From Antedon mediterranea (taxonomy: Eukaryota > Animalia > Echinodermata), in contig NC_092672.1 of NCBI RefSeq assembly GCF_964355755.1, forward strand, positions 37,888,437 to 37,952,436: a stretch of 64,000 bases of DNA, in the 5' to 3' direction. Numbering within the stretch: the first letter of the stretch is position 1; every line of letters begins with the position of its first letter. Under the pieces are notes generated by a model, which was given only the letters and a program-made list of their open reading frames with translations, was not told the origin of the DNA and searched no databases. This document shows, one piece after another, positions 25,204 to 64,000 of this stretch. Position numbers and translations under genes: made by a program.

Positions 25204-28200
25204 ATGTTTTCGTTGACTGTGTGTTTATTTTTTAGTTTCTTTCTTGGAGTTTATTACTACTTTGTCAAAGTTGCCGACAGATGTACCTGCCAAACGAATT
25301 TGAGCGGGAAAACGGTGATCATTACAGGTAGAAACAGTGTTGTTGTTGTTGTTTTGATATTTTAAGTTCTTCTTGCTGGCTTATGATTCCCTTACGAGAC
25401 TGGCAGCAGAAATACAGAAATAGTTAGTTTGATTGGTTGAAATGTTAGTCATTCAAACACCTGTTGATGTAAAAACTAGATTTACATACTATTGTTTTAA
25501 ACAATTTATACATTTTCTTGTCTGGCCCATCCATCATGGGTCGTTTTCATTATAGTTAGGTTTATTATCAATCTATAATTATAGTAGGCAAAACCAGCTT
25601 TCTAAGAACATTGAAGTCACCATGACCTTAGTTTAGCACACCATCAGATATGTATCGTTCTTGGCGGTTGCCATAGTGATTAGATAGGAATCTAAGTATT
25701 AAGTACTACAGTATACCATAACATGGAGGAAAAAATAATTAATTTTTCCTCCATGAGTATAACCTAAAAACCAACATGCCATCATTGTGTGGTTTTACGT
25801 TTTTACTCGCTAGACGCTCCTAATCTGTAAAATGATATAGGCCTACTGATCGGAGTCACATTTCTCACCATCTTCTTCAGAAAAAAGAAAAGAAAAATGT
25901 TAAATTGTTAAGTTTATTTGGTGTTGAATCCTTGAGTGAGGCATGTTCATTCAAGAGTCACGGTTTGTTTAACATTTTAGCTTAAATTACAAATAAACCG
26001 AGCACAATGTGGTTTAAATAAATAAACAATTACACTGAAGGATAGACTGTGTACAGTATTATTAAATGCATCCGTAGAATCGATGAATTTTCTACACTAA
26101 TGACATTTAAGCTATTTTTGAAAACAGGAAAAATATTGTTTTTGTAATAAGTTTCCTCTAACGATGCCGTTTGTCAATGTTATTCTACTCATCTAACAAA
26201 ATAGGCCTATTATACAACAAAAAGCCAATAGTCAGAATGTTTTTTATAGTTTGCATATTAAACTTGTTTTAAACAGAAATGTTTTCGGATATTATTACGG
26301 TACGACTTCAAAAAGGTCAACGTTTAAGGAATTGTAACTAGGCAATAAATAACGTGGCCATGTGTTTGTAGGCGTGCAGGAATGCAATTCCCTCGATGAC
26401 AACCACGACGTTCAAAATGAGATGGATAAGAAACCTGATTACGGATTTGCCTACAGGCCTGGAAAAGCTTGCGGCTCCCACGAGACGAAACGCAAGGACA
26501 CACACATGCAACGCACAGAAACACAAAACGCAAGTGACGCACGGACTCGGTTTTGGTAGTCCTAATATGGCGATAATAATATCATATTTAGAGACTTTTA
26601 CTTATTAATATTAATTAAACTGAACTGGATCGCTTTTGATGGAATAGTGCGTTATCGTGTGCACGTCTTATATTACGTTTTAGTTGGAACAAAGTTCGTA
26701 GACACCGGCGCCGGATGTACTCAATTGCGTAAACGGTATCTGTTTACTACCCACAGTTCCATGAAAGATGATAAAATATTCCCTCATAAAACTGTTTTTA
26801 TGTTAGATGATATATGTAATGACTGGTCTATTCCACGATACTGTATCTTACAACAAACTAACCTAGTACTAACTGTATTAATAGTTGTGCACTTGAACAG
26901 CATTTGACCACCAGGGGCATATATACGGTCCGGCCGGGAGTCAGCATTTGACCACCAGGGGCATATATACGGTCCGGCCGGGAGTCAGCATTTGACCACC
27001 AGGGGCATATATACGGTCCGTCCGGGAGTCAGCATTTGACCACCAGGGGAATATATACGGTCCCGCCGGGAGTCAACGTTTGTAAACGTGCAAGGTGGCT
27101 GCAAAATTTGTATTTGTAATAACAATCGGATTTATTTGGATATTCTAAGTACTAAAGTAGGCCTACATCACATCGCCTACGCATGTTGTTCAAATAATTA
27201 GGTGATACGGACGATAACGAAACCATTTAACGGGAAAGGTGCGTAATTAGGTTTGTGTAATGAATTGTGATGAGATTAATAATTATAGGCCTCGCATATT
27301 AGTATAAGTTGATAAGCATATGCTGGTACACATTCATTCTTACATACATTTACAGCGAGAAGTTCTATTTAATGTTTATCGTTAGTATACACGAATGATT
27401 GATGATCAGATGAAATTGTATTATATTTATATAATCTGTCGTATTGGGCTATAATAATTGAGAAATTAATTATCTTATTTAAGCCTATTATTATATTTTA
27501 AGTAGAGCGACTGTAACTAAATACGTAAATCGCATAGGCGGATTAAAGGGGCCCAGTTGCCCCCGGGCCCATCCTAAATTTTGCTATTGTTGTAATGCAA
27601 AATACAGGACACTAATTTCCGTTCGGCACTTAAAATTTGCAATTTTTGGCCCTGAACCCCACCCCAACCTATTTTAAAATCTTGGATCCGCCACTGAATA
27701 TAATCGAAACAAACTCCAGTTGTTAAATACCAAATTTACGTTTAATTATAATATCCGTCGTTCAAATATATAAGACATACTGGTATTGGAGAATAATAAC
27801 TCTTGACTTACAGCTTAAGGATATTATTGTATGGTAATAAAACCTGTTTATTTCTTTTTAGGTGCTAATACCGGAATAGGCAAAGAAACTGCTTTTGAAT
27901 TAGCAAAACGTGGAGCAAAGGTCATATTAGCATGTCGCAATAAAGAAAAGGCAGAAAGCGCTGCTAATGACATTCGTGTTGCCACGGACAACCCAAATGT
28001 CACGTGTTGTGTTATGGATCTAGCGAGCTTTAAATCGGTGCGCATGTTTGCTGAACGAATGCTGAAACAAGAAGATAGGATTGACATACTTGTAAATAAC
28101 GCCGGTAAGATATTTTATCATGAGCATATAGTACTTTTGTTTTCACGAATAGGTAGCTATCGAGTGGAAAAGTCATTCTGCAAACGCAGAAGATTCTCCT

Positions 28201-29293
28201 CTTTATGACACGTCTTTCACTAATGCTCTGTCTACACTATCAAACTAGTTTGACAACAAAAGTGTCATGTGCCCAATTATGGTAGTTATGTTGTAACGTC
28301 ATCGTGGACACTTCACTTTTTTCACATAAAGTTTGATAGTGTAGACAATGCATAAGGATCTGGGTCACTAAAAATGTGCTTTAATTCTCCAGGTGTGGTG
28401 GATGACGGTTCTAAACAGACTGAAGACGGCCATGACTTAGTGTTTGGCGTAAACCATCTCGGCCATTTCCTTCTCACAAATCTACTTGTACCAAAACTGA
28501 AAGAAAGTTCCCCCAGTCGGATAATAAACGTATCGTCTGATGCCTATCAGATGGCACAGCTTAATTTCGACAACTTGAATGAAAACAAGGGACGTATAGC
28601 ATCGTATTCGCAAAGTAAACTTGCAAATGTTGTGTTCACAAAGGAACTTAGTCGACGTTTGAAAAACACAGAATTAGCTGTGTTCTCTCTTCACCCAGGT
28701 TTGTATAGTTTTTATTGGGAAATGAACAAACTTAGGTAGGCCTATTAGGTTGGTTCAACTCTGTAAAATGACCACACTGTAAATCCCGGCTCTGATAGCT
28801 GAAAAGTTATGTTGGTATCTTTGATAAGTACGGTACTTAACAATAGTTTGGGCTCAGCTATAAACATTTTATTTGGGGAAAGGTAAATCAAAGGCACAAG
28901 ACGGTCAAATGGAGAAGATCCCGCTAACTTGAAATGTATGTTATAAATCCAAAGTATACATAAATGAGGGTGCAAAGACACAACATTACGTAACATAACA
29001 GTGGATATTTTTTTTTAGGAAGCATTGATACAGAGATAAAAAGAAACTGGTCTCCATTTCTCAAAGTTTTGGCACCAATCATCAAATTCTGGATGCTAAA
29101 AAGCGCAAATGATGGAGCGCAGACGTCTGTTCATTGCGCTATTGCAGACGACATATCGCATTTATCAGGCGCGTATTTTAAGGGTTGCAAGGTACAGAAG
29201 ATGGCAACACACGCAGCAGACGAAACCAATGGCAGGCGACTATGGGAGATCAGTGAAGAAATGACAGGTTTAAAAGAAACTGAGAAAAATTGA
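25204..29293 (+). CDS. Retinol dehydrogenase 11/12/13/14-like short-chain dehydrogenase/reductase (4 exons)
   Basis: Exons 25204-25327, 27862-28104, 28393-28698 and 29019-29293 join in frame. N-terminal hydrophobic anchor, GKTVIITGANTGIG cofactor motif, DILVNNAG, NHLGHFLLTNLL, RIINVSS, catalytic YSQSK, LHPG, GAQTSVHCA. Confidence 0.95.
26898..27075. repeat. 44-bp GC-rich tandem repeat x4
   Basis: CAGCATTTGACCACCAGGGGCATATATACGGTCCGGCCGGGAGT repeated four times in RDH intron 1. Confidence 0.95.
27533..27696. mobile_element. hAT-like MITE
   Basis: CATAGGCGGAT... / ...ATCCGCCACTG imperfect TIRs with GC-rich subterminal runs. Confidence 0.5.
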
Positions 29294-40100: not shown

Positions 40101-43100
40101 GTGTTAGTTTCACAATGCCATTTTATTCTAAATAAACGAGAACTGAACACTAAGCTTACCAGGACCAGTTGGTGGCCCTCTGTACTGTACAGTTTCCACA
40201 CTTGCATTACTTGATACAGATAGTTGACTAGAGAGGCTTATACCACTTGCGGAGTGCGGTATCCTATCTTGAGATGGCCCAGAGTCATTCATATCTAATA
40301 CAAAATTGTGATCTTCGTCTGAACAATCTGTCTGGATGCGTTTCTGATGGTGAAGCTGGATAGCCTCACCAGAGGGGCCTAAAATATTTATAAACGCAGA
40401 AAAAAAATTATTTTGTTTGTGTAGATATTAGCTCCTTACTTTGCTTTGTTGTGTTTATTTATTTGGATTATTAATACAATAATTATAATAATAATAATAA
40501 TAATACTGTATAAACAAAATTTAAAATGCTGGAAATAAGAAGATTAAGCAAAGTACATAGATTTTTTTTTTTGCATATGGCACAGGGTGTTGGACGTTGG
40601 ACTACTGATCGTGAGACCGAGGTTTGAATCCAAGTCTCGCCGCATTGCTTGTATCCTTAGGCAAGATACTTTACTTACGTTTGCCTTTCTCCACCCAGGT
40701 GTATAAATGGGTACCCGGTTAGATCAAGACACAACTTTGCGCTGATTACTAGCTGCATTATGGGAGTATGTTTCCATACGTGTTTGATCCAACAAATGAC
40801 TGGGGTAATATTGTTCAGCGCTTATATAAGAATGAACTATTATTATTATTAATGAGCCACCTAATAATATAAAATAGATGACATAAAAATGTAAAATAAC
40901 ATTGTGTAACATACCTTGTGGAAATGTATGTACCCATCTTCTCCTATTAGACGTCAGTCTGATAGTTGCACACGAAGGGGCAAACGGGTTGATCAAGGTT
41001 CGTTTAATGCGGTTGTTCGTTGGGCTAACATTCGGGTGGGTGTGTATAGCACTAGCGCTACCAACGATCACACGTTGAGGGAGTCCTTCATGATATTCAT
41101 TCTCCTCTTCTTCACTATGTGCCATCTTTTGGGTGAACTTAAAAAGATCTGTAAATGATGATGAGTTTGTGTTGATAGATTCAATTGTTAACCATGTTGT
41201 ATTATTTATATATACAATATACAAATAATGAATGTCTATGAGTGCGATGGTACAAATAATGAATGTCTATGAGTGCGATGGTAAAAATAATGAATGTTTA
41301 TGAGTGCGATGGTACAAATATTGAATGTTTATGAGCGTTCTTATATTTATGAAATAGAGCTACATAAATGCAGCATTATATGCAATGTGCAACTGTAATG
41401 TATATAATTCTTTATTCACCAAAGGCAAAACGGTATAAACAAATAGCTTTCGCTAGTCAATAGTTTACACCTGATTAACAAATATAACAGATGTCAACAG
41501 ATACTGAAAAGATAGATAGCCAAAACAGCACACAAACATACTTACCATCATCATTTCGATGGATTTGAAGATTTTTCCTCTGTCCAGGGATTGGAATAGC
41601 ACCCGACGAAGACTGGTCAACATTTGAAGTTACGACATCAGGCATTGATACCTGTTTTTGTAAATCATTGCTGCGTTGAAGTCTCAGCTTCAATAAAAAC
41701 ACAACCATTCATTAATAATGAGAAACAATCAAACAATAAACTTACAAAATTATTAAATTTTAAGCATTGTTTATAAACATACCTTCAATTTATCTTTGAA
41801 TGAGGTGTCTCGCAAACCAAATTGACTACGTACACTTTTTATGCTATGTGAGTAATAAATTAATAAATGTTAATGTTTTATACCTAATAAAACCAGAGAA
41901 ACAACCATACAAAAAAATGTTAATGGTGATAAACCAATATGCATTAATCAACATTTAAATAAAACAGACTGTAATTGTGATTCTCGGTACTGTACCTATT
42001 TGAACAGTATCATAGGCTATTATGTAATACAGTATCACATATGCATCACATGTATCATATGCAGTAAAACTAACATAATACAGGCATAACATGTGATACA
42101 TGTGTGACACTTTATCACAGAATTGTCCCATAATACTGGATAGATAGTGTCATATGTGGAGATACAGTACAGAAGAATAGGTTAATTAATCAGTTAAGAA
42201 TGAGTTAACATGCCAACTATTTCCACATTGTACTTTATATAATACTTACTCTGATTTTGAAGTGCGCCTACTTGGCATCTTGAACACGTTCTCATCATGT
42301 TCATCATAGTAATGGTCAGCCATGTATGTGCTACCTAACGTTAACTGTGATTTGCCCGTAGACGGCTGAAGCGCTGGTAACTCATCTACACTGCATGGCT
42401 ATAATAAATTATTAACAGGTGATAATAAGAGGATACCATATTCAAAACTCTTAGGCAGGTTCAAGGGGCGGGGAGGGGGTTCAGACTTTTAACATCACAG
42501 TGGTAGCATCCATATTTTCCAAGTCTTAATGGCCTAAATAACCCAGTTGCTGTACCAAGCGAATAAAAATATAGCTTTAAGCATTAACATACCAGTCTTT
42601 CTGCTAATTTGATTCTTGGTGTGAACTTTGATATGTTTGTAAAGTTATTGCTTGCTGGTTGGTTCTTAGATCGATAGAAGCTGTGGTTCATCCAGTGAGG
42701 TATGTTGTAATCATCTATTATAAGGTTATCTCCACATTTATTATGAAACTACAATTATAAAAGAATTATTTAATACTTTTATTTCAGATTCTTTCAGATA
42801 ATGAGAAATGTATTCCAATTTCTGTAATCGATAATAATTCTACAATTTCTAGATTGTGATTCAATGTATTCTTTCAACTAATTGCTAATGTACACAAGAG
42901 TACAGATTGTTTACTTACTCTGAACAAAGGTGTTACATGGAGAGGCTGTTCTGCCATACAAATAAGGTCTGTATTAATACCTATATGAAATAAAATATGA
43001 ATAATATAATAATATGTATGGCTGGCTTCTGATATTCTGGTAACAGGAAGCTTTTGACGACCTAGGTCATGTTAATTATTGAGAAGCTTTCAGCTTTTTG

Positions 43101-49318: not shown

Positions 49319-50833
49319 TATATAATATTCTTTGATTCAGTTCAGCGTCACATTCTCTACTTCTCTACGGAGCGCCATTTATGCCTTTATTTACTTCAGA
49401 AATAGTACTACGGTAACCAGTGGATCACATTTTGGGATACGTACGGGTTGGGTAGGTTTGGCAAGTATGCGTACCTTTTTATGGCCAGCGGGCGTCCCGG
49501 ATATTGCGCAATATGGCCAGCGGGCGTCCAATTATTGCGCAATATTTTTTCAATGGCAGCTCCACTCCGTGCGTGTGAAATACGTACAATGCGACACTAA
49601 TACACTGTGCTCAAGTGGACCAAATTTGGTACCAGGGAAGCACATTGATATAAAATAGAAATAAGTCATTGAATGTTAATATCTTTTCGTATTTTAATAC
49701 ACTGTACTTAAGTGGACCCAATTTGGCACCAGGCGAGCACAGTGATATAAAATAGAAATAATTCACGGAATTTTAATATCTTTTCGTATGTTAATACACT
49801 ATGCTCAAGTGGACCCAACTTGGAGTCACTGAATTTTAATATCTTTTCGTATTAAGCATATTTGAATACCTACCGGTATGGTACCATACATGTTCGACAA
49901 AACAGTGTCACATATCTCTATTAAAAAAGAAAAACAATATTAAAAAATATTTGTCGAGGTTCGAACCCCAGCTGATAGCACTCAAAACTGATCATTACCC
50001 GTTGCACCAGAAACTGAAACATGACTGAACAGCTGGTAATAGTCTATTTATACGTGTATTACGTAATTGATCATTACGTCATAAATATCCTATTAACATT
50101 GCTAAAACCAAAATGATCAGTTAGCTCAGTCGTCTGTCGTGGGTTCGATTCCCACGCTGGTCGGTGGAATAGAGTTAAGGCTATGCGAGCCACTGTGTTT
50201 AGGGTTCACAGATCATACGTCTCCCTTTCCACTACACATCATGAGGCGACAACATCAATGCATCTGGTGATGTGGTGGAAACGACCCCAAAAGGCTGTGG
50301 CAGGGCCTTAGTGCTGAGGCAGGGACAGCACATTTACCATCTTTTTTTTTTTGGCTCTCGCCAACTGCTTTGATGGTTTAAATTTTATGTTTAGCGCCCT
50401 CAATTTATTTTAATGTAAAAAAAGGGAATTAATTCTCTTCGTTACGTGTTTAGAAGAGAATTAATTTTATCTCATCATAGTTTGGTATGCCGTGCGTTTT
50501 TTATGCAAATGAGTGTGCACATGTGCTGTAAGTCATTCGCGATCAACACACAACACTGTTCAATTTTTACTCGGGGTACCCGAGTCTAGGACTTACTCAT
50601 TTTCTCCTCTTCCTCCATCTGGACACTATTGAGTAAAAAGTGCGATTTTTAAAGTACTACTCCTCCCTTATTCGTTGTAGTATTGAGCTGGGATTTGGCA
50701 TGAACATACTACAGGGACATGTCCTCAAAGCTATAGAGCCGGGTTTTTAATTTTTTGTTAATTAATTTGTTTAATTAAGAAGCCACAATGTGTGACACAC
50801 ACCACAGCGTTATGTAGTTATATGGTTATATGC

Positions 50834-50905
50834 GGATTCTTGGCGTAGTGGTTATCACGTTTGCTTAACACGCAGAAGGTACCTGGTTCGAGCCCGGACG
50901 AAACC
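50834..50905 (+). pseudogene. tRNA-Val(AAC)-like copy A1, degenerate
   Basis: TGGCGTAGTGGTTATCACG, anticodon arm TTTGC-TTAACAC-GCAGA, GGTTCGAGCCC, followed by a T-run; two acceptor-stem mismatches. Confidence 0.8.
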
Positions 50906-51121
50906 TTTTTTTAAACTTTATGGTGAAAAGTACTGTATACGCAATAATATGATAATTATACACAGTATATCTTATTTTTATTATTTTTTTAAATACTTAT
51001 TTTGTGTAATCGGTAATTATCACTTTTACACATGTTTATTTTTCTTTGTGCTTATTACCATATTTATTTGTAATTTAAATGGATTAAAAAACTTTCTGTA
51101 ACCCACATTTTTAGTGTAAGT

Positions 51122-51193
51122 GGTTTTCGTAGTGTAGTGGTTGTCAAGTCTGCTTAACACGCAGAAGGTCCCGGTTCGAGCCCTGGCGAAACC
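51122..51193 (+). pseudogene. tRNA-Val(AAC)-like copy B1, degenerate
   Basis: GGTTTTCGTAGTGTAGTGG, TCTGC-TTAACAC-GCAGA, GGTTCGAGCCC, CGAAACC, T-run; D-stem and T-stem lesions. Confidence 0.8.
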
Positions 51194-51354
51194 TATTTTT
51201 CTTTAACTTTATTGTGAAATAACTGTATACGTCTGTATACAGCTTCTTTCGCTGTACTCCGAGTATTGCACATTCGTGCTTTTTGGTTAATTAATTTGTT
51301 TAATTAAGAAGCCACAATGTGTGACACACACCACAGAGTTATGTAGTTATATGC

Positions 51355-51425
51355 GGCTTCTTGGCGTAGTGGTTATCACGTTTGCTCAACACGCAGAAGG
51401 TACCTGGTTCGAGCCCGGGCGAACC
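51355..51425 (+). pseudogene. tRNA-Val(AAC)-like copy A2, degenerate
   Basis: Tandem duplicate of A1 about 520 bp downstream; loop TCAACAC. Confidence 0.75.
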
Positions 51426-51637
51426 TTTTTTTTTAACTTTATGGTGAAAAGTACTGTATACGCAATATGATAATTATACAGAGTATATCTTATTTTTATT
51501 ATTTTTTAAAATACTTATTTTGTGTAATCGGTAATTATCACTTTTACACATGTTTATTTTGCTTTGTGCTTATTACCATTTATTTGTAATTTAAATGGAT
51601 TAAAAAACTTTCTGTAACCCACATTTTTAATGTAAGA

Positions 51638-51708
51638 GGTTTCGTAGTGTAGTGGTTGTCAAGTCTGCTTAACACGCAGAAGGTCCCGGTTCGAGCCCTG
51701 GCGAAACC
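51638..51708 (+). pseudogene. tRNA-Val(AAC)-like copy B2, best preserved
   Basis: Perfect acceptor stem GGTTTCG/CGAAACC and anticodon stem TCTGC/GCAGA; T-stem has a 1-nt deletion and a mismatch; D-stem mismatch. Confidence 0.8.
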
Positions 51709-53920
51709 TATTTTTCTTTAACTTGCTAACTGTATACGTCTGTATACAGCTTCTTTCGCTGTACCCCGAGTATTGCACATTCGTGCTTGTTATTTGTTAA
51801 TCTTTTACATTATAATTATAATTCTACCGTTACACATTATAGTTATTCATAAAAAAAAATATCCGTAGAGGTTCGAACCCCAGCTGATACTACTCAAAAC
51901 TGAGCATTACCCGTTGCACCACAAACTGAAACATGACTGAACAGCTGATAATTGTCTATTTATACGTGTATTACGTAATTCATCATTACAACATAAATAT
52001 CCTATTAACCTTGATAAAACCAAAATGATCAGTTAGCTCAGTCGTGTGAGCGTCGTGTTTTTGACAACACGTATGTCGTGCGTTCAATTCCCACGCTGGT
52101 CGGTGGAATAGAGTTAAAGGTATGCGACCACTGTGTTTGAGGTTCATAGAATAATTGTACGTCCCCTTTTCCACCACACATCTTGAGAAGGCACTAGCAA
52201 TGCATCTGGTAATGATGTGGTGGAAACGAACCCAAGGCTGCTGCAGGGCCTTAGTGCTGAGGCAAGGAGAGCACAATTGTTACTCTTTTTGTTGGCTTTC
52301 ACTACATGTATTTGATCTCATAAATTTTATGTTAGCGGCCTAAATTTTAATGTAAAAAAGGGATTAATTATCTTCGTTACGCGTTACGTGTTGAGAATAG
52401 AATTTATCTCTCATCATAGTTTGGTATGCCTTTCGTTGTTATACAAATGAGTTTGTGCAGGTGTAGTGGGAAAGATGGTATTGTTAGTCATTCGCGGTCA
52501 ACGCGCCCCACTGTTAAATTTTGATTTTATTAATCAATGTTGCAACATTGGTAGCGAAATGTCCGATTCTTCATAGTAGTTGGTGTGTATGGCGGCACCG
52601 TCCCAGAATAAACATGTTTTAAACAGATAGTCTCCGATGGTTTTTGTATGAGGTTAATGGAGAGTGAAATAAGATCAAATATAGAAAATTTGCAAAGATG
52701 CCGATTTCCAGACCAATTTCGAAGCTTAGACTAATTCCGCCGCCGGGCTAGGCCATAGGCATATACGAAGTCGAGTTTTTAAAGTAGAAAACCCCACCTA
52801 GTCGCATTTGGATAGTTGAAATTTTAACATTATCATAATTATCATAGGTGACTATGTATAGTAATAAGTATAAGTAAGTGCATTTCTGGGCTCTATTTTC
52901 ATTGCTCTGCCTCAACAACCATGGATGGGCTAGTACTGGAGACTTAATATTTAATTTTATATTTCAATTAATAGGTGCACTTTTCGGGGACTAGCTCATA
53001 TTATTGTCCTGGTGAGTCTTATATAGTTTGTTTCATTCAAATCACGTAACGCCATTTTTTTCGGGCGGGAACATACTGTTATAGCCTACAGCTCTTTTTT
53101 TTTTGCTCAGCCCCAAGCATGGTGGGGTACTGAAGATTCTTATATGCATGTTGTTTGAAAACATAATAGATGTCATTTTCGGGTACCTTTGTGGCTCTAT
53201 TTTAAACAGTTTGGTATGTGCATGCGTTGTTATTCAAATGAGTCTGTGCAGGTGTATTATGGTAAAGATGGTATGTTCGTCATTTGCTGTCAACACGCCA
53301 CGCTGTTAAATTTTGATGCTGTTAATTATTTACATTAGAAGATTTTTCAAATCATGTAAATAAAATATTTTCCGGGCGGGAAGCTAGCAGTTCCCCTCGT
53401 TTAGTTTACAAAAGTAATCTCGAAAAAAACTCCATGTGAAAAAAAGCCCACCCAAGAATACTAAAAATAAAGGAGCACATGGGCTACTTTTCGAGGTTTT
53501 ATGGCAGTCTATTTAATGGAAAATAATGCCATACAACTTTGTTTCTGATTTATAAAAAGTTCCACTTGACATTTACAATCCTCAAAATATCTCTTTCAAA
53601 ATAAATAGAAAAACAATATTCATTATTTTCCATTAAAAAAAAATCCACTGGCGCTAAATTGGGTCCACTTGAGCACAGTGTATTAAAATACGAAAAGATT
53701 GAAACTTGAGTGACTTTATTTCTATTTTATATCAGCTCCCCTGGTGCTAAATTGGGTCTACTTGAGCAGTTACCGTAGTACTATTTCTATTATTGAAGTT
53801 AATAAAGGCATAAATGGCGCTCCTTAGAGAAATAGAATGCTCCAGTCCGTCAGAATGACGCTCTGAATACTCATGTAGCGTGTTATAATAATAATAATTT
53901 TGTTCCAATTTTCCGTTATA

Positions 53921-55266
53921 ATGTTACGAACTCTACAAAACATTAGTATTTCTTTAGTTAAAAATCCACGACTGTTGTACTTTAGTTTTGGTAAGGCAAT
54001 ATGATAAACATAATTAATTGAAATATCTAGGCCTAGTAGGCTGGGTCCTTGTTTTTGACTAGCCGCGACGACAGACCTGACCGAGTCAATATTAGTAGCG
54101 CCTGATATATAGGTAGGCCTAGGCCTAGACGGGAGTAGGCTAGGTAGGGTAGAGTCACCTCTAATTTTGTTAAGGGAAGCCACAAATGGTACAGCATGCA
54201 AGAAACATTTAAATTGATACTTTTTTAAACTTTTAATTTTTTTAAATATTTTATTAATTTAGGCCTAGGCCTAACTAATTAATATTATTAGGGCCTACTA
54301 GGCCTATTCTCTAGGCTAATTACTAGGCCTAATAGAATAGTAGCCTGTCAGGCTGTGGATTAAGCATTAATAAGTAAGCATTTTTTAAGCCAACATCTCA
54401 CTAAAAATAGTGTAACCGATTCCATTGGTGGTGTTCAAAAAGAGGATTAATAATAATATACAAATTTGTTTCAGTTACAGTAATTAAAGAATTGTTTTAC
54501 ACAACATAGTTAACTGTATTTGAGATAATATATATATAGTTTAAATACTGTATGTAGAAATATCAGCAATAATCAAGATTTTAATTTAGAAATGGCTTGC
54601 CACCGTCATTATTATTTATAACATCAGGCATTGACTAGTTTCAGTGGACATGTGTGAGTGAGAGAGAGACCAGCGATTTCCTTGCCTGCCTCATATATAT
54701 TTGATATATGTTGTTTTTATTTATGTTTAGATTGTTGTCCAACGTCATTATACAATAGTCAATCAGTACCAGTTATTCAAGTTGCTTCTTTAAAGAATCT
54801 CAGACCATTGGATTCATACGATGGTTAGTCTTTATCCACTTTAAAATTAATTAATTAATTACATATACAAACAACAAGTACCTTGAATTTATTATTTTTA
54901 AAGATCAGAACTTGAGAACTGCAAGTTCTTTAGATACTAAAAAACTTATCCTATTCATCATTGTTTTTGAATTTCATAAGCGCCATGGTTGAACTTTATA
55001 ATTAATTTGTTTTATAATGGTAATTAATAAGATAATCGGTTTTTTTATGTTATTGTTCATACATAAAATATTCAACATGTCATAATCTTAACTTTTATTG
55101 CATAATGTTCAATATAGACATAGTGATGCCAGAGAAGCCTAGACTTCCTCTGTTACTCAAAGTTCCCAATGTCATGAAGCCACTGAAAGAACCTAGAAAA
55201 CTTATTGATTTACGCGGCCCTGCTACGGAAGGAACAGAGCTGGAGCTTGATCAGTTTGGTTTGCAG
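53921..55266 (+). CDS. MRPL16: Mitochondrial ribosomal protein L16 (uL16m), first three coding exons; gene continues beyond the window
   Basis: Exons 53921-53990, 54731-54823 and 55118-55266 with phases 1, 1, 0 give MLRTLQNISISLVKNPRLLYFSF-DCCPTSLYNSQSVPVIQVASLKNLRPLDSYD-DIVMPEKPRLPLLLKVPNVMKPLKEPRKLIDLRGPATEGTELELDQFGLQ, matching recalled human MRPL16 (DVSIPEKPKL..REPKNLSDIRGPSTEATE). The next expected exon (ALGGG..GHFEM) was not found before 64000. Confidence 0.9.
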
Positions 55267-55540
55267 GTACAGTAGAACTCACTTCATTTGAATAAAAATA
55301 CTGTAGAGAAACTCTTATTTTGCGCATATTATACTGAAAGCTCTCAATACTGAAAGCTGTAAACATTAGTACCCCACTCATTTCAGGGGCAGATCTAGGA
55401 TTTTGATAAAGAGGGGGACGATATGGGAAAAATAATCGTCTAGGGGGGTCCGGGGCACCCGGCGATAGCATCTGAGGCGTTTTGGCCAGTCGATTCTTGT
55501 CATATAATTATCTGAATATAGTGGGTTTTATAGACCATAT

Positions 55541-56540
55541 CAGGGGCGGTCGCAGGATTATTTTAAGGGGGTTGTCCGAGAGTCCAGGGCCATAATAGAA
55601 ACCAAGTATTTGCGCCATAGGCCCCCCACGGTGTGTGGTGAAGCGAATTTTGTTAAATAACACCTCTAGGTGGCCGGAAATGACACTATATCTATCGGGC
55701 TACAGTAGTAAACAGCAGTATTTATCCCATATATTTTTTTCTGCTGGCAAAACACACGCTACTAAGGATTTTTGCGTTTAAAATGCGAACGTCAGAGAAA
55801 GTCCCAGACGAAGGTACTTCCGGTAAGGTAATCAATTAATACAAATTAATTACTAGGCCTATTATCAATTAATAATTTTTAGTAGTAGTACAGACAAAAA
55901 ATGTGAAGCTGCTGCTATAAATATTGAGCTGAATTGTAAAATTATGCTAAATAAGTCAGTAAAACAACACTTCCCAAAATTCATTTTCATTTATCCACTA
56001 TACTGTACAACAGTGTTGCTTAATCCACACTCTAGAAGAGAAAATATGATCGAAATTTGCAGAAAGAAAGAAATTAAACACTGTTATTTCAAAGTTCGGA
56101 ACGTCCGTAATTACTACAGAAATTCGGCCCAATATTACGGACGTTAGGGAAATGAAGATAAAAAAGGGTACTACGGAAATACTTAAATGATGGAGAATCC
56201 CTGGTAAAATGCAATAATTACGGACAAATCAACGACCCATATGACGGGCTTTTCCACGTACTCTATATTCTCATGACACACACAAGCAATCCAAACAGTC
56301 AGAAATTCATTCTGAGCATGTTCAGAAACATATCTAAAAAAAAATTGTGCACGGTTAATTTTACGCTACAGTCAGTCAATTTACATAGACTCTTCCAACC
56401 CTGGACTTCTATAACGTTAATGGTTAATATATCATAATGAAATGGATCTAAATTTTAACTTAGTGGCAGAAAAAAACATTTAGTATGAAATTAAGGGTGT
56501 TGCCTGGGCAACTGGGGCAACACCCCTGCGTCCGCCCCTG
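55541..56540. mobile_element. hAT-like non-autonomous element (1 kb)
   Basis: TIR CAGGGGCGG(T/A)CGCAGG / CCTGCGTCCGCCCCTG, flanked by CATAT on both sides; nested in another GC-ended element that starts CAGGGGCAGATCTAGG at about 55384. Confidence 0.7.
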
Positions 56541-59309
56541 CATATTTAATAGCCTTTACGGAACTGGTTTTTTTTTGCGCCTATAGCCTGTTTTCCCGTC
56601 GTGAATTTTTACACATTTTTTACGCGATCGTTTTTTTGGTTCTTTCGACGTTGCTGGGACACATGGACGTGAAGTTTTGCAAAGTTACGGGTTTTGATGC
56701 TTCAGCAAAGCCGGCCCAGGACATGTTTTCGCTGATATCTTAATCTAGTTTTTACACTAAAGACAAACATTAAATTAAATTGTTTTTATATTAAAATTTA
56801 GTTTTGCACTTGTTATTTTGAAATATCAGACCCCAAAAACATTGTCACGTTGTAAAAAATCAAGAATTGTCAGCGCGTACGTATTTTTTCGCAAACAATG
56901 ATGACGTAATTTATGAACTATTTGATTGGTCAGTCTGTTTTACCGATCGTTGTAAAACGTTGAAGTTGAACTTGTTTAAAAAAAAAAAATTGAAGATTTC
57001 AACTATTTTTAATGTTAATTTGTACCTCCTTTTCCGGTAAAATCGTTGATAAAATCGTATGTAAATGGGTGCATAATATATATTTAAAAAAAGGTGGGGG
57101 GGGGGGAGGCCGGGGGCGGCCCGGCAAGACACCTACTGTACAATATATTATTAGTTTCATATGCTAAAAATAATACTAGACTATAAAAAATAGTCTAGTT
57201 AGTAGTATAAATTCAAATATTTTTCTGTACTAGTTAAACTTGATACTATAAAGTAAGGAGAAATTACTGAATGATATAGTGAGAATTCAGGGTGACCGAA
57301 CTTTGTAATTATGTTTCTCATTCATCATCAATTCTCAAATTACATTGCAATTATTTACCAATTTACTGTTAACATTTAAAACATATCATGTGACAAGTCA
57401 ATGGTCGCTATTGAACTTATTACATTTAGTAGATGTAATAATTCAACATTTACATTAACAAACTGGAATGAATTACTTTATTCTTGTGATTGTAATCACA
57501 TTCATGCTATTCTCACCTGATTCCTAATCCTAGTGCTGTACCTCCACATACTATCTAGTTCCGAAGTATCATAGGAGTATTTAGTAATACAGCAGCATCA
57601 CATGTGGTGCCTGTATCGTGTAAGGTTACTGTAGGTTAAAGGTTACTGTAGATACATGTGAAACACATGTGATGGTGTATTAACAATTATTCCTATGATA
57701 CTTCGAAATCGGCTGCTATTCTTTTCACAGGATCTAGAAATTAGCATTTACTGTTTGGAAGTCCTTATATTACTTTGCAATTACTTAACCCAGCCCTATC
57801 AAGCATTTCCTTTCAAAATTTATTGTTTTGCTTCTATTGAGGTGTGTAGTTAAACCGTGGACCTATAAATTAGTTAGGTCCATGGTTTAACTAACGTGCA
57901 ATCAAGTTTAAAAGGCATAACAAAAACTCACAAGTACTGGTATTCAGAGGTTTATACATAAATGCAGTGTTGAAATAAGTTGGCCTTATAATAAACATTT
58001 TGACTTAAAGTAGGTATCCCAATGAAGCGGATTTTCGTTACCGTGATTTTAACACGTTCGTGAAATTTCAAAAAGTGACGTGTCTTTGAAGTTAAAAATA
58101 TACTATTTCTGATATACACATGTGAATAAAAATTATATGTCTGGAAAGATCTTGTTTAAGGGATTATTTTCATATATTTTTAATCTATGTTTATTAAATA
58201 TTTTAATAGAAAACGCGAGTTAAAAATGAGGTACAAAAGCCGGCGAGCCGAAATCCGCGCGCTAAAAATAACTTTGGAAAACACCTACCCATTTTCAAAA
58301 CACGATCGCACGAGGTCCATAATAGGTGGTGGAGTAATTTTTGTTGCATGTTATCAGGCTTTAAATACTCTTTATTTTGATATGTAAATCGGTTATTATT
58401 ATTATGTACATCCGCCTCAAATGTCAATTTTAACGATAACAATTGAATTTTTTAGTCTTTCTCATTATCAAAATCTGGCTAATTTAGTATTGAATTGAAG
58501 CTAATTTAATTTATATTTCTGTTTGATAAACCACATCGTTTTATTTGACTTTGCGTGGACCTCGTGCAAAGAGGCCAACAAGACCAACCACTGAAAAAAA
58601 TAATCCCTACCATAAATATCAGTGTTTACCATTTTCCTTACGGGGGGGATTCAGTTCTCCGCTTATTACTAAATTATCGTCGCCCAGACAATGTGCATGG
58701 TATGCATGTATTAGCGCGTTAATTAATGATTGGATAACCCCTGCAGTGGACTGTTCCATTTTCTGAACTAGTCTTCGCTGCACACGAGGCATGTCGAAAA
58801 ATGTCGCCTCTCATGGAATATTTGCTTCGAAACGTCAATTTTACCGATTTATTAAATTATTTAATTGGAATATTTATAAATCTACTATATAAAGCAAGTA
58901 CGTTAGGAAGAAATGTACCGAAGAAATTTAAGAAGCTTTGATTTTGCTATGCAGCGGCCGTAAGCCATTCTATGTAGGCGGCCGAAACGCGCTTTGGCCT
59001 GTGTTGCCGTTGTATGTCTACGCTGTTTCTAGGCCTAAATTTTATTCCGTATATTTCAATTCAAAGTGCAACTTTCGGTTAGAATAATCGAAAGGGAAAT
59101 AAAATTAAACATGTTAACATTATACCATTGAGGTAATTACTTTGTTAAATAAAAAATTTCTTCCCGATATTTCTTAGGCAGAATTTAGCGTCAGGCTTTT
59201 ATTTAGACCTTAGTTAGCTAGCTCTGAGACAACAATCAAAGAGATTGGAAACGCTAGCGATTTCCCTTTGTGTGGCACTTGCCGCCAGGTTCAGTGTAGT
59301 ATACCTCTT

Positions 59310-59391
59310 TGTTATGCAAATTAGCTAAGTCACCGGCCAATCAGCGAATTCGCGCAAGCGCAGATTAACTGTTTATCAAAATCAGTGATCC
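59310..59391 (+). promoter_or_regulatory. Candidate Pol II promoter of the transposon partner gene
   Basis: Octamer ATGCAAAT (about 59315), CCAAT box GGCCAATCAGC (about 59335) and a CpG-rich patch directly upstream of the spliced exon 59392-59455. Confidence 0.45.
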
Positions 59392-60912
59392 ATGAAAAAA
59401 GTTTTTGGAGGGGTTTTTAAATCTCGCGAGCAGGAGATAAACAACGAAATATACGGTAAGACTATAGGTGTTTATAAACATTATTTATGTTGTTTAAAAA
59501 TGTTAAATTAGGTATTAATTTTTTCTGTAAAAATGATTATTAACACCAGAGTACAACACTACAAGAATTAATTGAAAAAAAAAGATTTCTTTGGGATAAT
59601 TATCAAATATTAGCCTACATATAATAGGCCTACAGCAGCAGTAGGCCTATTCATTTAGCCAGGCCAGCATATTTATTATTAATTATTTATTAGGCCCCTA
59701 TATAGGCCTAGGCTAATTATTAATAAATACTAGGCCAAGGCCCTAGCCTATAGGTGTAGTAGTATAGTAGGCCTAGAGGTTAGGTTCAATAAGGCATTCA
59801 TTCATTCTTAAGTGTATGCCTATAAATAATTATTAGGCTATGTCACATAATGTTAATAATTTTAAATCAGGGTAAATTAAAGAGCAATATACGATATAAA
59901 TAAATAAGAAAGCTCGTCAATTAGGTTTTTTTTTTCAGTTATGGCAACAAAATCAACAGCCTGTAGGCCTAGTCCTTTACCACTTACCACTGCCAAGGAA
60001 ATTAATGAAGATTTGCCACACATGGTGACAGATGCACTGAACATATTAGTAACCGATGACATTCACCATGCATCATGGTCCAAGTGTGGTTTAGGTGTGA
60101 TCTCAATTGCAAAATCAATATTAGAGAATCAATCTGAAATAAATATGTTTTTATCGGAAGAGATTATGGATAGTCTGCTGCAGCCCACAGCTGCAGATAT
60201 CCTAAAAGCTGTTTTCCAGCTGAGGATAAACAGAAAGTTTATTCATGATTTTTTGAATAAGATAATTACTAATATTAATAATACAGAAACTGAAAAGGAG
60301 GCTTTTGTTCAAAGATTTTTGACCTGCATAACTACATCATTTTTTAAACGACAAAATGAAAAAATTGAAGTAAGATATAATATGGAAATAGAGTTAGTAA
60401 CTACAGCAGACAAGCAAATCATCCATCATATTACAGGTTCTATTATAAGAAAATTGAAAAAAAGGTACATGAACAAGCCAGTTGAAAGAGAGATGCTTAG
60501 CAATCTGACCACTGATAATGGTGTAGACAGTAGATGTTCATGGACACAAAGTTTGGACAGAGGCGGTTTGATTTACCCCTCAACAAAATTTCTTAATTTA
60601 ATTATTTTAATTGAGCGTTGGATTAGGGAGTTAATAAACAGTGAAAGTTTACAACATGATTCTTTAATTAACATAAAGTCTACAATACTAAAGTATAAAC
60701 TGGTAACACATATATGGTGTAACCTTATAACCTCACCAAATACACAGAAATGGATAGTGTTGGACAATGTTGTTGAGTTATTTTTAAAAATTAGAGGGTT
60801 TGCTTTAACTGAACAACTTAAAAGCAAAATGCAAAAAAAACGAAAGCAACAAAAACTTGCTGCCGGAACTAAAAAAGCATTAAGAAAAGAACTAAAAGAA
60901 TTAAACAAGTAA
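59392..60912 (+). CDS. Transposon partner protein resembling the P-element/THAP9 transposase C-terminal domain (2 exons, about 345 aa)
   Basis: Exon 59392-59455 (GTAAG donor) splices in frame to 59939-60912 (poly-T CAG acceptor). Motifs IIHHITGSIIRKL and WTQSLDRGGLIYPSTKF resemble recalled Drosophila P transposase YIAGYVIKKL and YVDEVSHGGLIKPSEKF. Basic C-terminal tail. Confidence 0.75.
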
Positions 60913-61011
60913 AATGAAAAATAAGCTATACGCTGTAATTTATTAACTGGAGTACTGTAAATGTTTTGTGCAAAATAAAAAAAAAGTCAAATTTACTATT
61001 ATAAAATGCTA

Positions 61012-63375
61012 TTAAGACTTTTTTACTCTGCGTTTAAGTGGAATGTTTAAATTTTCTTTGTCCAATTCAGACATAATTCGCTTAGTGTTGCCTCTTATGG
61101 GTGCAACTGCTGCTGACCCAACAACCCTAAGTGTATTTAATGTATGTCGAACATTATCAATTGTTGGATTGTCACCTGCTCCCTGTTTGTGTCTATAATG
61201 TCCAAAGTGCTGTTCGAGTACATCTTGATTAAACACACACGTATTTACAAATTTGGCTCCTTTTCCCAACAAATAACGAACACATGCTACAATAGAATTA
61301 ATGGTGATATGAAAGCCATGTATGGTTTGCTGACTTAGTAACATACGCTTTCTTTCTGCATCAGCAAATTTTCCTACTCGTTCTTTTACATCATTTTCCC
61401 ATTGCTCAAGGTATCCTAAAAACTCTGTCTCTAAATATGAAAGTCTTGGATCATGGATGTCTTTGTATGGATTTAAGTCTGTGTTTCTGGATAACTTACC
61501 AGCGTTATTGTTTCTTGTATTTAAGCAGTCAAAAAAGCGATTCATGTGAGTTATGAAGGTGATTGTTTCTCTTGCACTGTCACCATATACTTCTTTCATG
61601 TGCTGTGCAACTCTGTTACTGAAAACTTGAGCAGCTAAATTGACTTTCATCACACTGAAAGGGGTGAGGTCAATATGTGCTCTTGTTAGTTTTGTTTTTT
61701 TATACAATTTTCCTTCTGTGTGTTCTTCAAACAGTTGAACTAAACTCATCCATGAAATGTTCTGTCCACCTTTCCACAGATTTCTTGATTTTTTGTGACT
61801 ACCAGAATTTGAAAAACAATTTCTAGCTGTTTTTAGCAGATGAGGGACATCTGAAATAAAATATAGATTCCGATTTGGAGCAAAAGGATTTGTACAACTA
61901 AACTTGTTTTTAAGCCCATGAGAATCAAAAAATGATCTATTCTGGCTAGCACCATCACATGTAAGATACAAAACTTTCAGTCCAACATCTATTTCAAGTA
62001 GTTCAATGGCTCTCCATAAAATTGTGTGGAGATCTTCAGAACGTAGTCCATTTGTTGCAAAAACTGCCAATGGAAATTTTAAGTTACTTGTTGCCCCTCG
62101 TACCATAATAACTAATGCACTTTTTGCCATCTCATTGGTGATTTCATTTTTCTTATTTTCAATTTTGTGAATCTCATTGCTAATGTTATCTAAATTTGTA
62201 AATCCAATCAATTCATTAGTGGAGGCAGAATATACCAAGTCTTCTTTTATTTTAATTTCATCCTGTAAAATTCCAACATATGATCGCCATTCTTCAGTAA
62301 AGAGTCCTTTTCTTTTAGCCTCCTCGTGTAGCATTTCTAAAACTTCTTTCTGGTAACCTAATTTACTATCAATGACGTGGCTATAATCATATAATGTTCT
62401 TTCACTTGGTAAACTTATAAAACCAGTTTCTCTCAGTGCTTGATATGCAGTTGAAGATTTAGATTTCAAGTACAAAGCCCATTTCACAATAATAGGATGC
62501 CACCTCATCTGTCTTTTCTCTTTTAACTTGTTGAATTTTAATTGTTCTTCCCAAAATATTCTTTGAAATGAATCAGGATCTCGAAACAAATTGTTGAAAG
62601 CATTTTCTCCTTCTTGAATAATAGTTTCTAGGTCACCATTAGAATCATCTGTCAGTTCATTGTTCTTATATTTTTGATTAATTTCCTGATTAATTAATAT
62701 TTGCTTTTTTTTTCTTTCAACACTTTGACATTGTTTTTTTAGCATCTTACTTTTAATTAATAAATCATTTTTAGTCAAACTGGAATTAGGCCTTTTAGAT
62801 GACAATAATACTTCAAATGACTGATTGTGTTTCATAGATTTTCGCAATGATCGTCTGTATGTTGCACAATGGGGGCACCTGTTTGTTAAAGTAGTTAAAA
62901 GGAAGCAGCGATCAGTTCGGATTGTTTGTGTGTATTCTGCTCCACAATCATGTTCCACATACTTGTTTTCCTGCAATGCAGTTAAGTCAGGATTTCCTAT
63001 GCACACAGTATATTTATCAAACAAGAATTTTAAAAACATGAATAAATGATTAAACACATGCACCTTCCGTATACTTTCAAATATTGTATGATTATCAGGT
63101 AAGCGCTTGTTATGAACGATTACGGTTATATTAAAGTTTTTGTCAATGGTAACTGCCATCTTAACAGAAAAAAAACGTTTCTCATAGAACTGAATGAGTG
63201 TCAGATCACTAGTTGCCTTAATGACTTCAAAACCAATGTTATTCAGCTTTTCTTGTTTCCTTGTGCAATCAAATCGCAACTGCTGGTATGTCACATAATT
63301 GATGTTATCTTCTGTCTCAAGTTTTGTCAATGAAGATCCAAGTACTAAATAACTCTCAATTGGTTCCTTATGTTC
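61012..63375 (-). CDS. P-element/THAP9-superfamily DDE transposase, main exon (intact); 5' exon(s) upstream
   Basis: About 790 uninterrupted codons. WHPIIVKWAL, AYQALRETGFISLPSERTL, catalytic D in LQDEIKIKEDL, D in TCDGASQNR, SDVPHLLKTARNCF, MKVNLAAQVFS, NRFFDCLN, catalytic E in NQDVLEQHFG. Acceptor AG at 63376-77; candidate upstream exon about 63464-63653. Confidence 0.93.
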   Translation of the reverse strand, partial: EHKEPIESYLVLGSSLTKLETEDNINYVTYQQLRFDCTRKQEKLNNIGFEVIKATSDLTLIQFYEKRFFSVKMAVTIDKNFNITVIVHNKRLPDNHTIFESIRKVHVFNHLFMFLKFLFDKYTVCIGNPDLTALQENKYVEHDCGAEYTQTIRTDRCFLLTTLTNRCPHCATYRRSLRKSMKHNQSFEVLLSSKRPNSSLTKNDLLIKSKMLKKQCQSVERKKKQILINQEINQKYKNNELTDDSNGDLETIIQEGENAFNNLFRDPDSFQRIFWEEQLKFNKLKEKRQMRWHPIIVKWALYLKSKSSTAYQALRETGFISLPSERTLYDYSHVIDSKLGYQKEVLEMLHEEAKRKGLFTEEWRSYVGILQDEIKIKEDLVYSASTNELIGFTNLDNISNEIHKIENKKNEITNEMAKSALVIMVRGATSNLKFPLAVFATNGLRSEDLHTILWRAIELLEIDVGLKVLYLTCDGASQNRSFFDSHGLKNKFSCTNPFAPNRNLYFISDVPHLLKTARNCFSNSGSHKKSRNLWKGGQNISWMSLVQLFEEHTEGKLYKKTKLTRAHIDLTPFSVMKVNLAAQVFSNRVAQHMKEVYGDSARETITFITHMNRFFDCLNTRNNNAGKLSRNTDLNPYKDIHDPRLSYLETEFLGYLEQWENDVKERVGKFADAERKRMLLSQQTIHGFHITINSIVACVRYLLGKGAKFVNTCVFNQDVLEQHFGHYRHKQGAGDNPTIDNVRHTLNTLRVVGSAAVAPIRGNTKRIMSELDKENLNIPLKRRVKKS

Positions 63376-64000
63376 CTGCAATACACACAGAAACACTCAT
63401 TTATAACCACACTATAATGATTAAATACTTTATACAATCTTTTTACACAACCTATGTACTTACTTCAAGCAGTGGTTCATTGTGTACACTATGAACAACA
63501 CAATCACAATTTGCAAAATTTCCAGTGAAAGTCACAATGCTTAACTTGCTCAATTGGCTGACGAGTGAGTGGTTTTCGTTGAGATGGAAGACCATTAACA
63601 CAATATTTGTATCGTCTACCAATTAATGCTTTTCTTTTTTTTCTTGTCATGATCTGTTATAAATAAAAGAAAACATTGATCATTGGTTTGCACTGGTTTC
63701 TGTACATGCATTTCAGGCACTTACTTCTAGGCAAGAAACACTAAAGCCCCACTAAGCAATATAATAATCCCCCTCACCCTCACCCCCTCCCCCTCACCCC
63801 TCCCCCCTCACCCTCACTTCCCCAACCAATTTTGTTTGACCCCACCCAACTACCATTCCATACTACTGCACACCAAATAGAGCAGTAAAAACAAGTTTGG
63901 AAATAGGATCAATTTGATTTGACAAGGTAAAAGCTAGCCTAGCCTAGACTTAATTTAGGCGAAATTACGCTAATGAATGCATTATGAATCCCTGTGACTA

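Follow-up and report, generated by a model that had tools for sequence, protein, structure and literature searches.

A convergent gene pair in Antedon mediterranea suggests a two-gene P-type transposon with a separately encoded C-terminal domain

The transposase of P-type mobile elements has been described as one chain of six domains, and a locus in the echinoderm Antedon mediterranea raises the question of whether the C-terminal domain (CTD) of such a chain can be supplied by a gene of its own. The locus lies within a stretch of 64,000 nucleotides (NCBI RefSeq assembly GCF_964355755.1, contig NC_092672.1, positions 37,888,437 to 37,952,436, forward strand), called the window below and numbered from its first letter, and involves two open reading frames (ORFs): ORF1, a transposase on the minus strand, and ORF2, which meets it tail to tail from the plus strand. 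Judging by sequence comparison and structure prediction, the element appears to be a two-gene cut-and-paste transposon of P type, in which a transposase core without the CTD is accompanied by an oppositely oriented gene for a CTD-like protein. A first-pass annotation of the window had proposed such a two-component P-superfamily system, together with three checks that could have refuted it (no similarity of ORF2 to the P CTD, a general occurrence of ORF1 homologs without ORF2, and a one-off inversion); none of the three has refuted the proposal, which is supported.

The open frame of ORF1 (61012-63396, minus strand) runs for 794 codons and ends in PLKRRVKKS. Pfam profiles recognize within it the N-terminal part of an RNase H domain (PF21787, E 3e-26), the GTP-binding insertion inside that domain (PF21788, E 6.5e-18) and, below the cut-off, its C-terminal part (PF21789, E 0.0038), and the Drosophila transposase chain 6p5a_A also matches the frame (E 1.5e-14). 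The catalytic residues, in the numbering of P0002, are D372, D474 and E721, and the D(2)H motif is D509xxH512; among 121 aligned rows, D372, D474, D509 and H512 are each conserved in 120, and E721 in 109. Ahead of the core, a helix-turn-helix is hinted at by PF12017 (E 0.1, below the cut-off) and by a weak stretch of alignment to residues 133-215 of 6p5a_A.

After the catalytic Glu of the QDVLE motif, 66 amino acids (aa) precede the stop codon, close to the 65 or so estimated at first. Comparable tails are found in the relatives of ORF1, of which the best 120 of 218 at E <= 1e-20 were examined, their names pointing to echinoderms, a hemichordate, molluscs and thrips. All 108 that possess the Glu carry 43-85 aa beyond it (median 65); 11 of the remaining 12 stop short of this position, and one has Lys there. 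The CTD motifs occur in none of the 120, against which a profile of ORF2 reaches a best E of 0.26. The short tail is, in these sequences, a trait of the whole clade. The N-terminal side of the protein is less regular: no THAP domain was detected in the ORF1 main exon by Pfam, nor was a THAP pattern seen by eye in the upstream coding exon, an exon beyond the window being conceivable, and PF05485 (THAP) is annotated in one of the 120 relatives, many of which are gene calls without upstream exons. The upstream exon holds one additional A at 63528 with respect to the covering contigs of read runs X1, X3 and X8; this is likely to be an assembly error, because the encoded peptide on either side resembles the N-termini of the relatives P0007, P0009 and P0011 and because the read contigs differ. 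Viral contigs searched with the ORF1 core, and with the full-length THAP-bearing P transposase P0274, yielded no relative.

The ORF2 frame (59908-60912, plus strand; ATG at 59941) encodes 323 aa and contains IHHITGSIIRKL and LDRGGLIYPS. Its relatives number 209 among 50%-identity representatives, with a median length of 313 aa in the 150 listed, and none of these 150 is matched by the transposase profile. When a 129-row profile of ORF2 (A2) was compared by hmmsearch with 177,635 PDB sequences, the first match was 6p5a_B, in which the C-terminal part of Drosophila P transposase is deposited as a chain of its own, at E 1.2e-5, the next standing at 0.95. The alignment takes in both CTD motifs that had been noted at the outset as absent from ORF1 and present in ORF2. 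Furthermore, hhalign places the ORF2 profile on the tail of P0274 with a probability of 95%; this protein, matched at residues 758-829, was also the only one recovered when longer fused forms were sought, which bears only weakly on their absence, and a 1486-aa protein with eight short repeated matches (P0149), likely spurious, was excluded from the profile. The Pfam family Tnp_P_element_C is weakly matched by 22 of the 129 rows, and 17 of them match a C2H2 zinc-finger family, in view of which some ORF2 proteins may bind DNA by themselves.

The predicted fold points in the same direction. A model of ORF2 built from the A2 alignment reached a mean predicted local distance difference test (pLDDT) score of 91.7, the single-sequence model (40.5) being unusable, and its residues 151-300 superpose on 6p5a_B 617-734 by VIA-align over 116 of 118 residues, with a Z of 12.1 and a root-mean-square deviation of 2.4. 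With this method 6p5a_B ranks first both among the Foldseek candidates and among 48,161 representative chains, the next Z being 7.6. The N-terminal sequence that had been called unrecognised is present, with a length of about 150 aa rather than about 170; in whole-model searches it gave weak helical matches with Z up to 6, and whole ORF2 has no match above 0.80 in the ESM Atlas. On profile and modelled fold together, ORF2 is best regarded as a CTD homologue with an extra N-terminal domain.

The two genes are found together well beyond the window. From 138 metagenome loci retrieved with the transposase alignment, the best 80 were searched with an ORF2 profile built without these loci, and ORF2 was present at 23, on the opposite strand every time: downstream and convergent at 22, upstream and divergent at one. 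In this last locus (L004, 4371-8617), the only non-convergent pair of the 23, ORF2 stands head to head with the transposase, which suggests that the pairing can survive a change of orientation. Most other contigs of the 80 end too early to show ORF2; where an intact transposase end is followed by at least 2 kb, ORF2 is seen at 11 of 14 loci, or 9 of 12 with duplicates merged. Further pairs, with intron-split genes, lie on long contigs in two prokaryote bins (G001 and G002; L081-L115), and these intron-split transposons of animal type are likely to represent contamination from an animal host. In addition, three pairs of transposase and ORF2 relatives (P0009/P0127, P0007/P0131 and P0093/P0137) have longest source contigs of equal size, a circumstantial sign of pairing. 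In L111-L113 there are intron-rich pieces of P-type transposase with no ORF2 match within 13 kb, which could be an outgroup.

Trees of the two genes were compared over 21 pairs, comprising the window, 17 of the 23 loci, and L081, L084 and L104 (duplicates L008 and L017 and the short L042, L043, L060 and L068 were dropped). The ORF1 and ORF2 trees have five starred clades in common, with a Mantel rho of 0.64 (p 1e-4), and identity across the pairs spans 30-81% for the cores and 9-64% for ORF2. The ratio of nonsynonymous to synonymous substitution (dN/dS) that had been called for is 0.18 for ORF2 of L010 and L016 and 0.33 for L059 and L081, dS being saturated in the other six of eight pairs; ORF2 thus evolves under purifying selection. 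The two-gene layout is that of a lineage, and not a one-off. That ORF2 could reflect a unique inversion or an assembly artefact in a single-gene P element, or a functionless passenger gene, is therefore extremely improbable: small indels do distinguish the window from reads at 59822 and 63528, but a contig of 2,715 bp from run X1 covers both genes with zero differences, the same arrangement is seen again at 22 metagenome loci and in the long contigs of G001 and G002, and the selection just described acts on ORF2. A one-off inversion was rejected on its recurrence across diverged elements, as was a single spliced protein, the two genes being on opposite strands.

The ends of the element and its copies are informative with regard to mobility. 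Complete relatives have terminal repeats that begin with CATAGA or CTGGGA and contain GGGATTGGAA. Of 23 element ends, obtained from a C-anchored pattern and confirmed by target-site duplications (TSDs) or differing flanks, 17 start with CAT and six, including that of the window, with CTG. Perfect 7-bp TSDs are present in four of the seven relatives that have both ends (L081, L084, L105 and L106), and the flanks of the 23 ends are biased, with G at -7 in 15, T at -6 in 13 and A at -2 in 14, both ends of an insertion being counted, so that these are not independent. Within the window, the left end of the element lies at 59224, and not at 59392 as was first thought; this placement is based on the family motif and on three X3 contigs that depart there into differing flanks. 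A repeat search of 50000-64000 found no pair of terminal inverted repeats (TIRs), as expected with one end outside the window.

Read depth in X1 is about 75 across the element as against 18-20 on two flanking contigs; depth is not copy number, and X1 and X3 come from one sample, possibly the source of the window itself. Because of this depth, the identical 2,715-bp contig and the differing flanks at 59224, the data suggest that a few very recent, near-identical copies of the window element exist. The initial suggestion that the element may be young or active is supported by this identical multi-copy sequence, and the window copy, with its open frames, may still be active. Joints in read contigs at window positions 59331-59552, 59583-60506 and 60537-61028 point to a non-autonomous deletion derivative of the element in the same reads. 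Run X8, from a second organism, contains close copies with frame-breaking indels. Internal deletions also mark the copies at L105 (5330-8444) and L106 (6862-10125), which are bounded by perfect TIRs and 7-bp TSDs; both have lost most of the transposase and retained ORF2 sequence, open over 324 codons in L105 and interrupted by a stop in L106.

What, then, could ORF2 do for the core? In the Drosophila strand-transfer complex, according to the available text of the structural study (PMC7776569), the CTD is carried on a disordered linker, sits between the RNase H domain of one subunit and the GTP-binding domain of the other, touches both transposon and target DNA, holds a looped transposon strand and aims a basic helix at the target. 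Because of this linker and this placement, a split between core and CTD would be tolerable and a CTD provided in trans could serve. In ORF2 the additional N-terminal domain, which includes a C2H2 finger in some relatives, might replace the tethering of the lost linker, and perhaps that of the missing THAP domain; with separate promoters, the ratio of the two proteins might control transposition. It is considered probable, on sequence and model, that ORF2 is a required second subunit that joins the core, and this is the simplest reading because every complete core is without a CTD, and ORF2 keeps the whole fold and a basic tail under selection.

Two other roles can be envisaged. ORF2 could be a regulator only, a CTD-derived repressor or modulator next to a short transposase that acts alone, which would agree with its separate promoter side and extra domain, with the zinc-finger matches of 17 of the 129 aligned relatives, with the retention of its sequence in the deleted L105 and L106, and with its non-detection at three of the 14 informative loci. 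Such a role is nevertheless judged unlikely, since it offers no account of how 108 of 108 complete cores manage without the domain that contacts transposon and target DNA in Drosophila, and since the whole CTD fold and basic tail are kept in ORF2, whose copy in L106 is moreover broken by a stop codon. It could also be that ORF1 alone excises the element and that ORF2 is needed at a single step, target capture or site choice, as the direction of the basic helix towards target DNA (PMC7776569, available text) and the biased, non-independent flanks of the 23 ends would allow; the CTD also holds the looped transposon strand in that structure, which speaks for a role throughout, and restriction to one step is regarded as very unlikely.

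Several observations weigh against the reading of the element as a two-gene transposon with ORF2 as CTD homologue and required second subunit. Three of the 14 informative loci (L001, L020 and L071) show no ORF2 match, and three short-contig loci with both ends (L009, L059 and L066) show no TSD, possibly because multi-copy ends have been joined to the wrong flank. Used as a single sequence, the window ORF2 finds no CTD match in PDB or Pfam, and it is placed on a long branch with no starred placement in the tree. Foldseek alone ranks 6p5a_B seventh at E 0.83, though with a probability of 0.99 and a target TM-score of 0.75; Z values below about 13 can occur among helical bundles, a caution attached to VIA that is offset here by the agreement of sequence profile and fold. 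Finally, the agreement of the trees is shared inheritance, and not binding or shared function. As regards the loci without a match, L071 has convergent frames behind a short-tailed transposase (2230-3843, minus strand), with an ORF2-like C-terminus and 7% against the ORF2 profile, which may be a very diverged ORF2. In L001 (2531-4129), the P-type transposase is followed directly by genes for a YqaJ nuclease and for DDE_Tnp_4, likely an inserted element that we take to be of the ISL2EU type.

Two genes within one TIR pair, often on opposite strands, are also found in Kolobok Kol0 (transposase and KolX), as well as in PIF/Harbinger, ProtoRAG and ISL2EU; in these systems the partner of the transposase is an accessory protein of unrelated origin, as for Harbinger and RAG2. 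ORF2, unlike the accessory proteins of other two-gene elements, is homologous to a domain in the single-chain transposase of its own superfamily. KolX is described as a zinc-binding P2X7 ballast fold in the available text of PMC9587614; in the fold searches ORF2 matches the P CTD best. Kol0 termini are given there as 5'-RR..YY-3', whereas all 23 listed ends start with C. With Drosophila P (PDB 6P5A/6PE2), vertebrate THAP9 and zebrafish Pdre2, the element shares the GTP-binding insertion that splits the DDE core, D(2)H, the helical CTD fold and short TIRs (PMC7776569 and PMC10983969, available text). It differs from them in that theirs is a single polypeptide, in which a THAP domain at the N-terminus and the CTD are both joined to the core, whereas here the CTD is encoded on the opposite strand by a gene that adds a 150-aa domain, and no THAP is detected; their TSDs are of 8 bp, against 7 bp in the relatives here, and their ends start with CA, against CT at the window end. 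The tail of human THAP9 did not itself align to the Drosophila protein, according to the part of PMC10824691 available. Galileo resembles the present lineage in its DDE and D(2)H residues and in a 7-bp TSD with consensus GTANTAC, to which the flank bias is similar, and departs from it in its long TIRs of foldback type and in its one transposase, which bears a THAP domain; neither 'second ORF' nor 'ORF2' is used in the available text of the same source (PMC4168063). The element is classed as a two-gene side branch within the P superfamily because DDE and D(2)H residues, the GTP-binding insertion and, in relatives, the 7-bp TSD are present, and the THAP domain and the CTD in the same polypeptide, canonical for P, Galileo and THAP9, are not found in the exons covered.

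No description of such two-gene P elements was found in the literature searched, in which papers were available in part and from which Repbase, Dfam and subscription papers lay outside, and the terms sought are absent from PMC10294476. Taken as a whole, the proposal of an old, widespread and apparently undescribed P-type lineage with an obligate two-protein transposase, made up of a THAP-less core and a separate CTD subunit that captures target DNA, is given somewhat better than even chances. To this lineage the window contributes a recent, multi-copy member of the CTG-ended sub-lineage, and L004 one divergent arrangement. That the CTD keeps a gene to itself among cores of 30-81% identity implies that the domain is likely able to act in trans, and makes its role in excision, strand transfer or target choice accessible to separate study, with possible use as a transposon tool of two components under separate control. 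The pairing further points to a likely function for about 200 animal proteins that form an unnamed family, and many of the short 'THAP9-like' gene models from marine invertebrates would then each be one half of such a pair. If the proposed two-protein transposase is real, the lineage would offer a naturally split enzyme with a built-in two-key switch, and would parallel, independently, the tail-to-tail layout of RAG1/RAG2.

The features of the element and its host context are collected in Table 1. As first described, the second gene is intact and the spacer of 99 bp contains AATAAA, which occurs on the plus strand at 60974 and on the minus strand at 60939-60944, and hence provides a candidate poly(A) signal for each gene. 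The proposed in-frame first exon of ORF2 is consistent with a join to 59939 under GT..AG rules; splice and promoter are candidates. An intron of MRPL16 was proposed as the site of insertion, and this location is likely, given the MRPL16 exon upstream of the element; three short motifs turned up no further MRPL16 exon downstream in the window.

Table 1. Coordinates of the two-gene element and of its host context in the window
Feature	Position	Strand	Description
MRPL16 exon (host context, not element)	55117..55260 (about)	+	E 3e-7 to human uL16m 41-88; about 4 kb upstream
Left terminal inverted repeat, ORF2 side	59224..59252	+	Starts CTGAGAC, ends in family motif GATTGGAAAC; partner repeat beyond window
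Candidate ORF2 first exon	59392..59455	+	21 codons and one base; GT donor 59456; from sequence only; may be 5' untranslated
ORF2 main exon	59941..60912	+	323 aa, predicted all-helical: N-terminal domain of about 150 aa, CTD-like domain, basic tail
CTD-like domain, ORF2 residues 151-300	60391..60840	+	Homologue of P transposase CTD, 6p5a_B 617-734
Spacer between the two stop codons	60913..61011		99 bp; candidate poly(A) signal per strand
ORF1 main exon	61012..63375	-	P-type transposase core, GTP-binding insertion, 66-aa tail, without CTD; from Pfam, 6p5a_A and conservation
ORF1 upstream coding exon	63464..63650	-	Basic N-terminus and Cys/His motif common to relatives P0007, P0009 and P0011

The interval that separates the MRPL16 exon from the element holds, at 55336-59158, a nest of high-copy repeats with very high read depth. 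Elsewhere in the window, exons at 4610-4975 and 11576-12031 (minus strand), 27819-28739 (plus) and 40724-41266 (minus) are host sequences that we take to resemble matrix metalloproteinase, short-chain dehydrogenase and DEPDC5. A long tandem array of 12-bp type at 2258-3759 keeps several frames open, and four tRNA-Val(AAC) genes at 50834-51710 are carried by a duplicated unit about 520 bp long.

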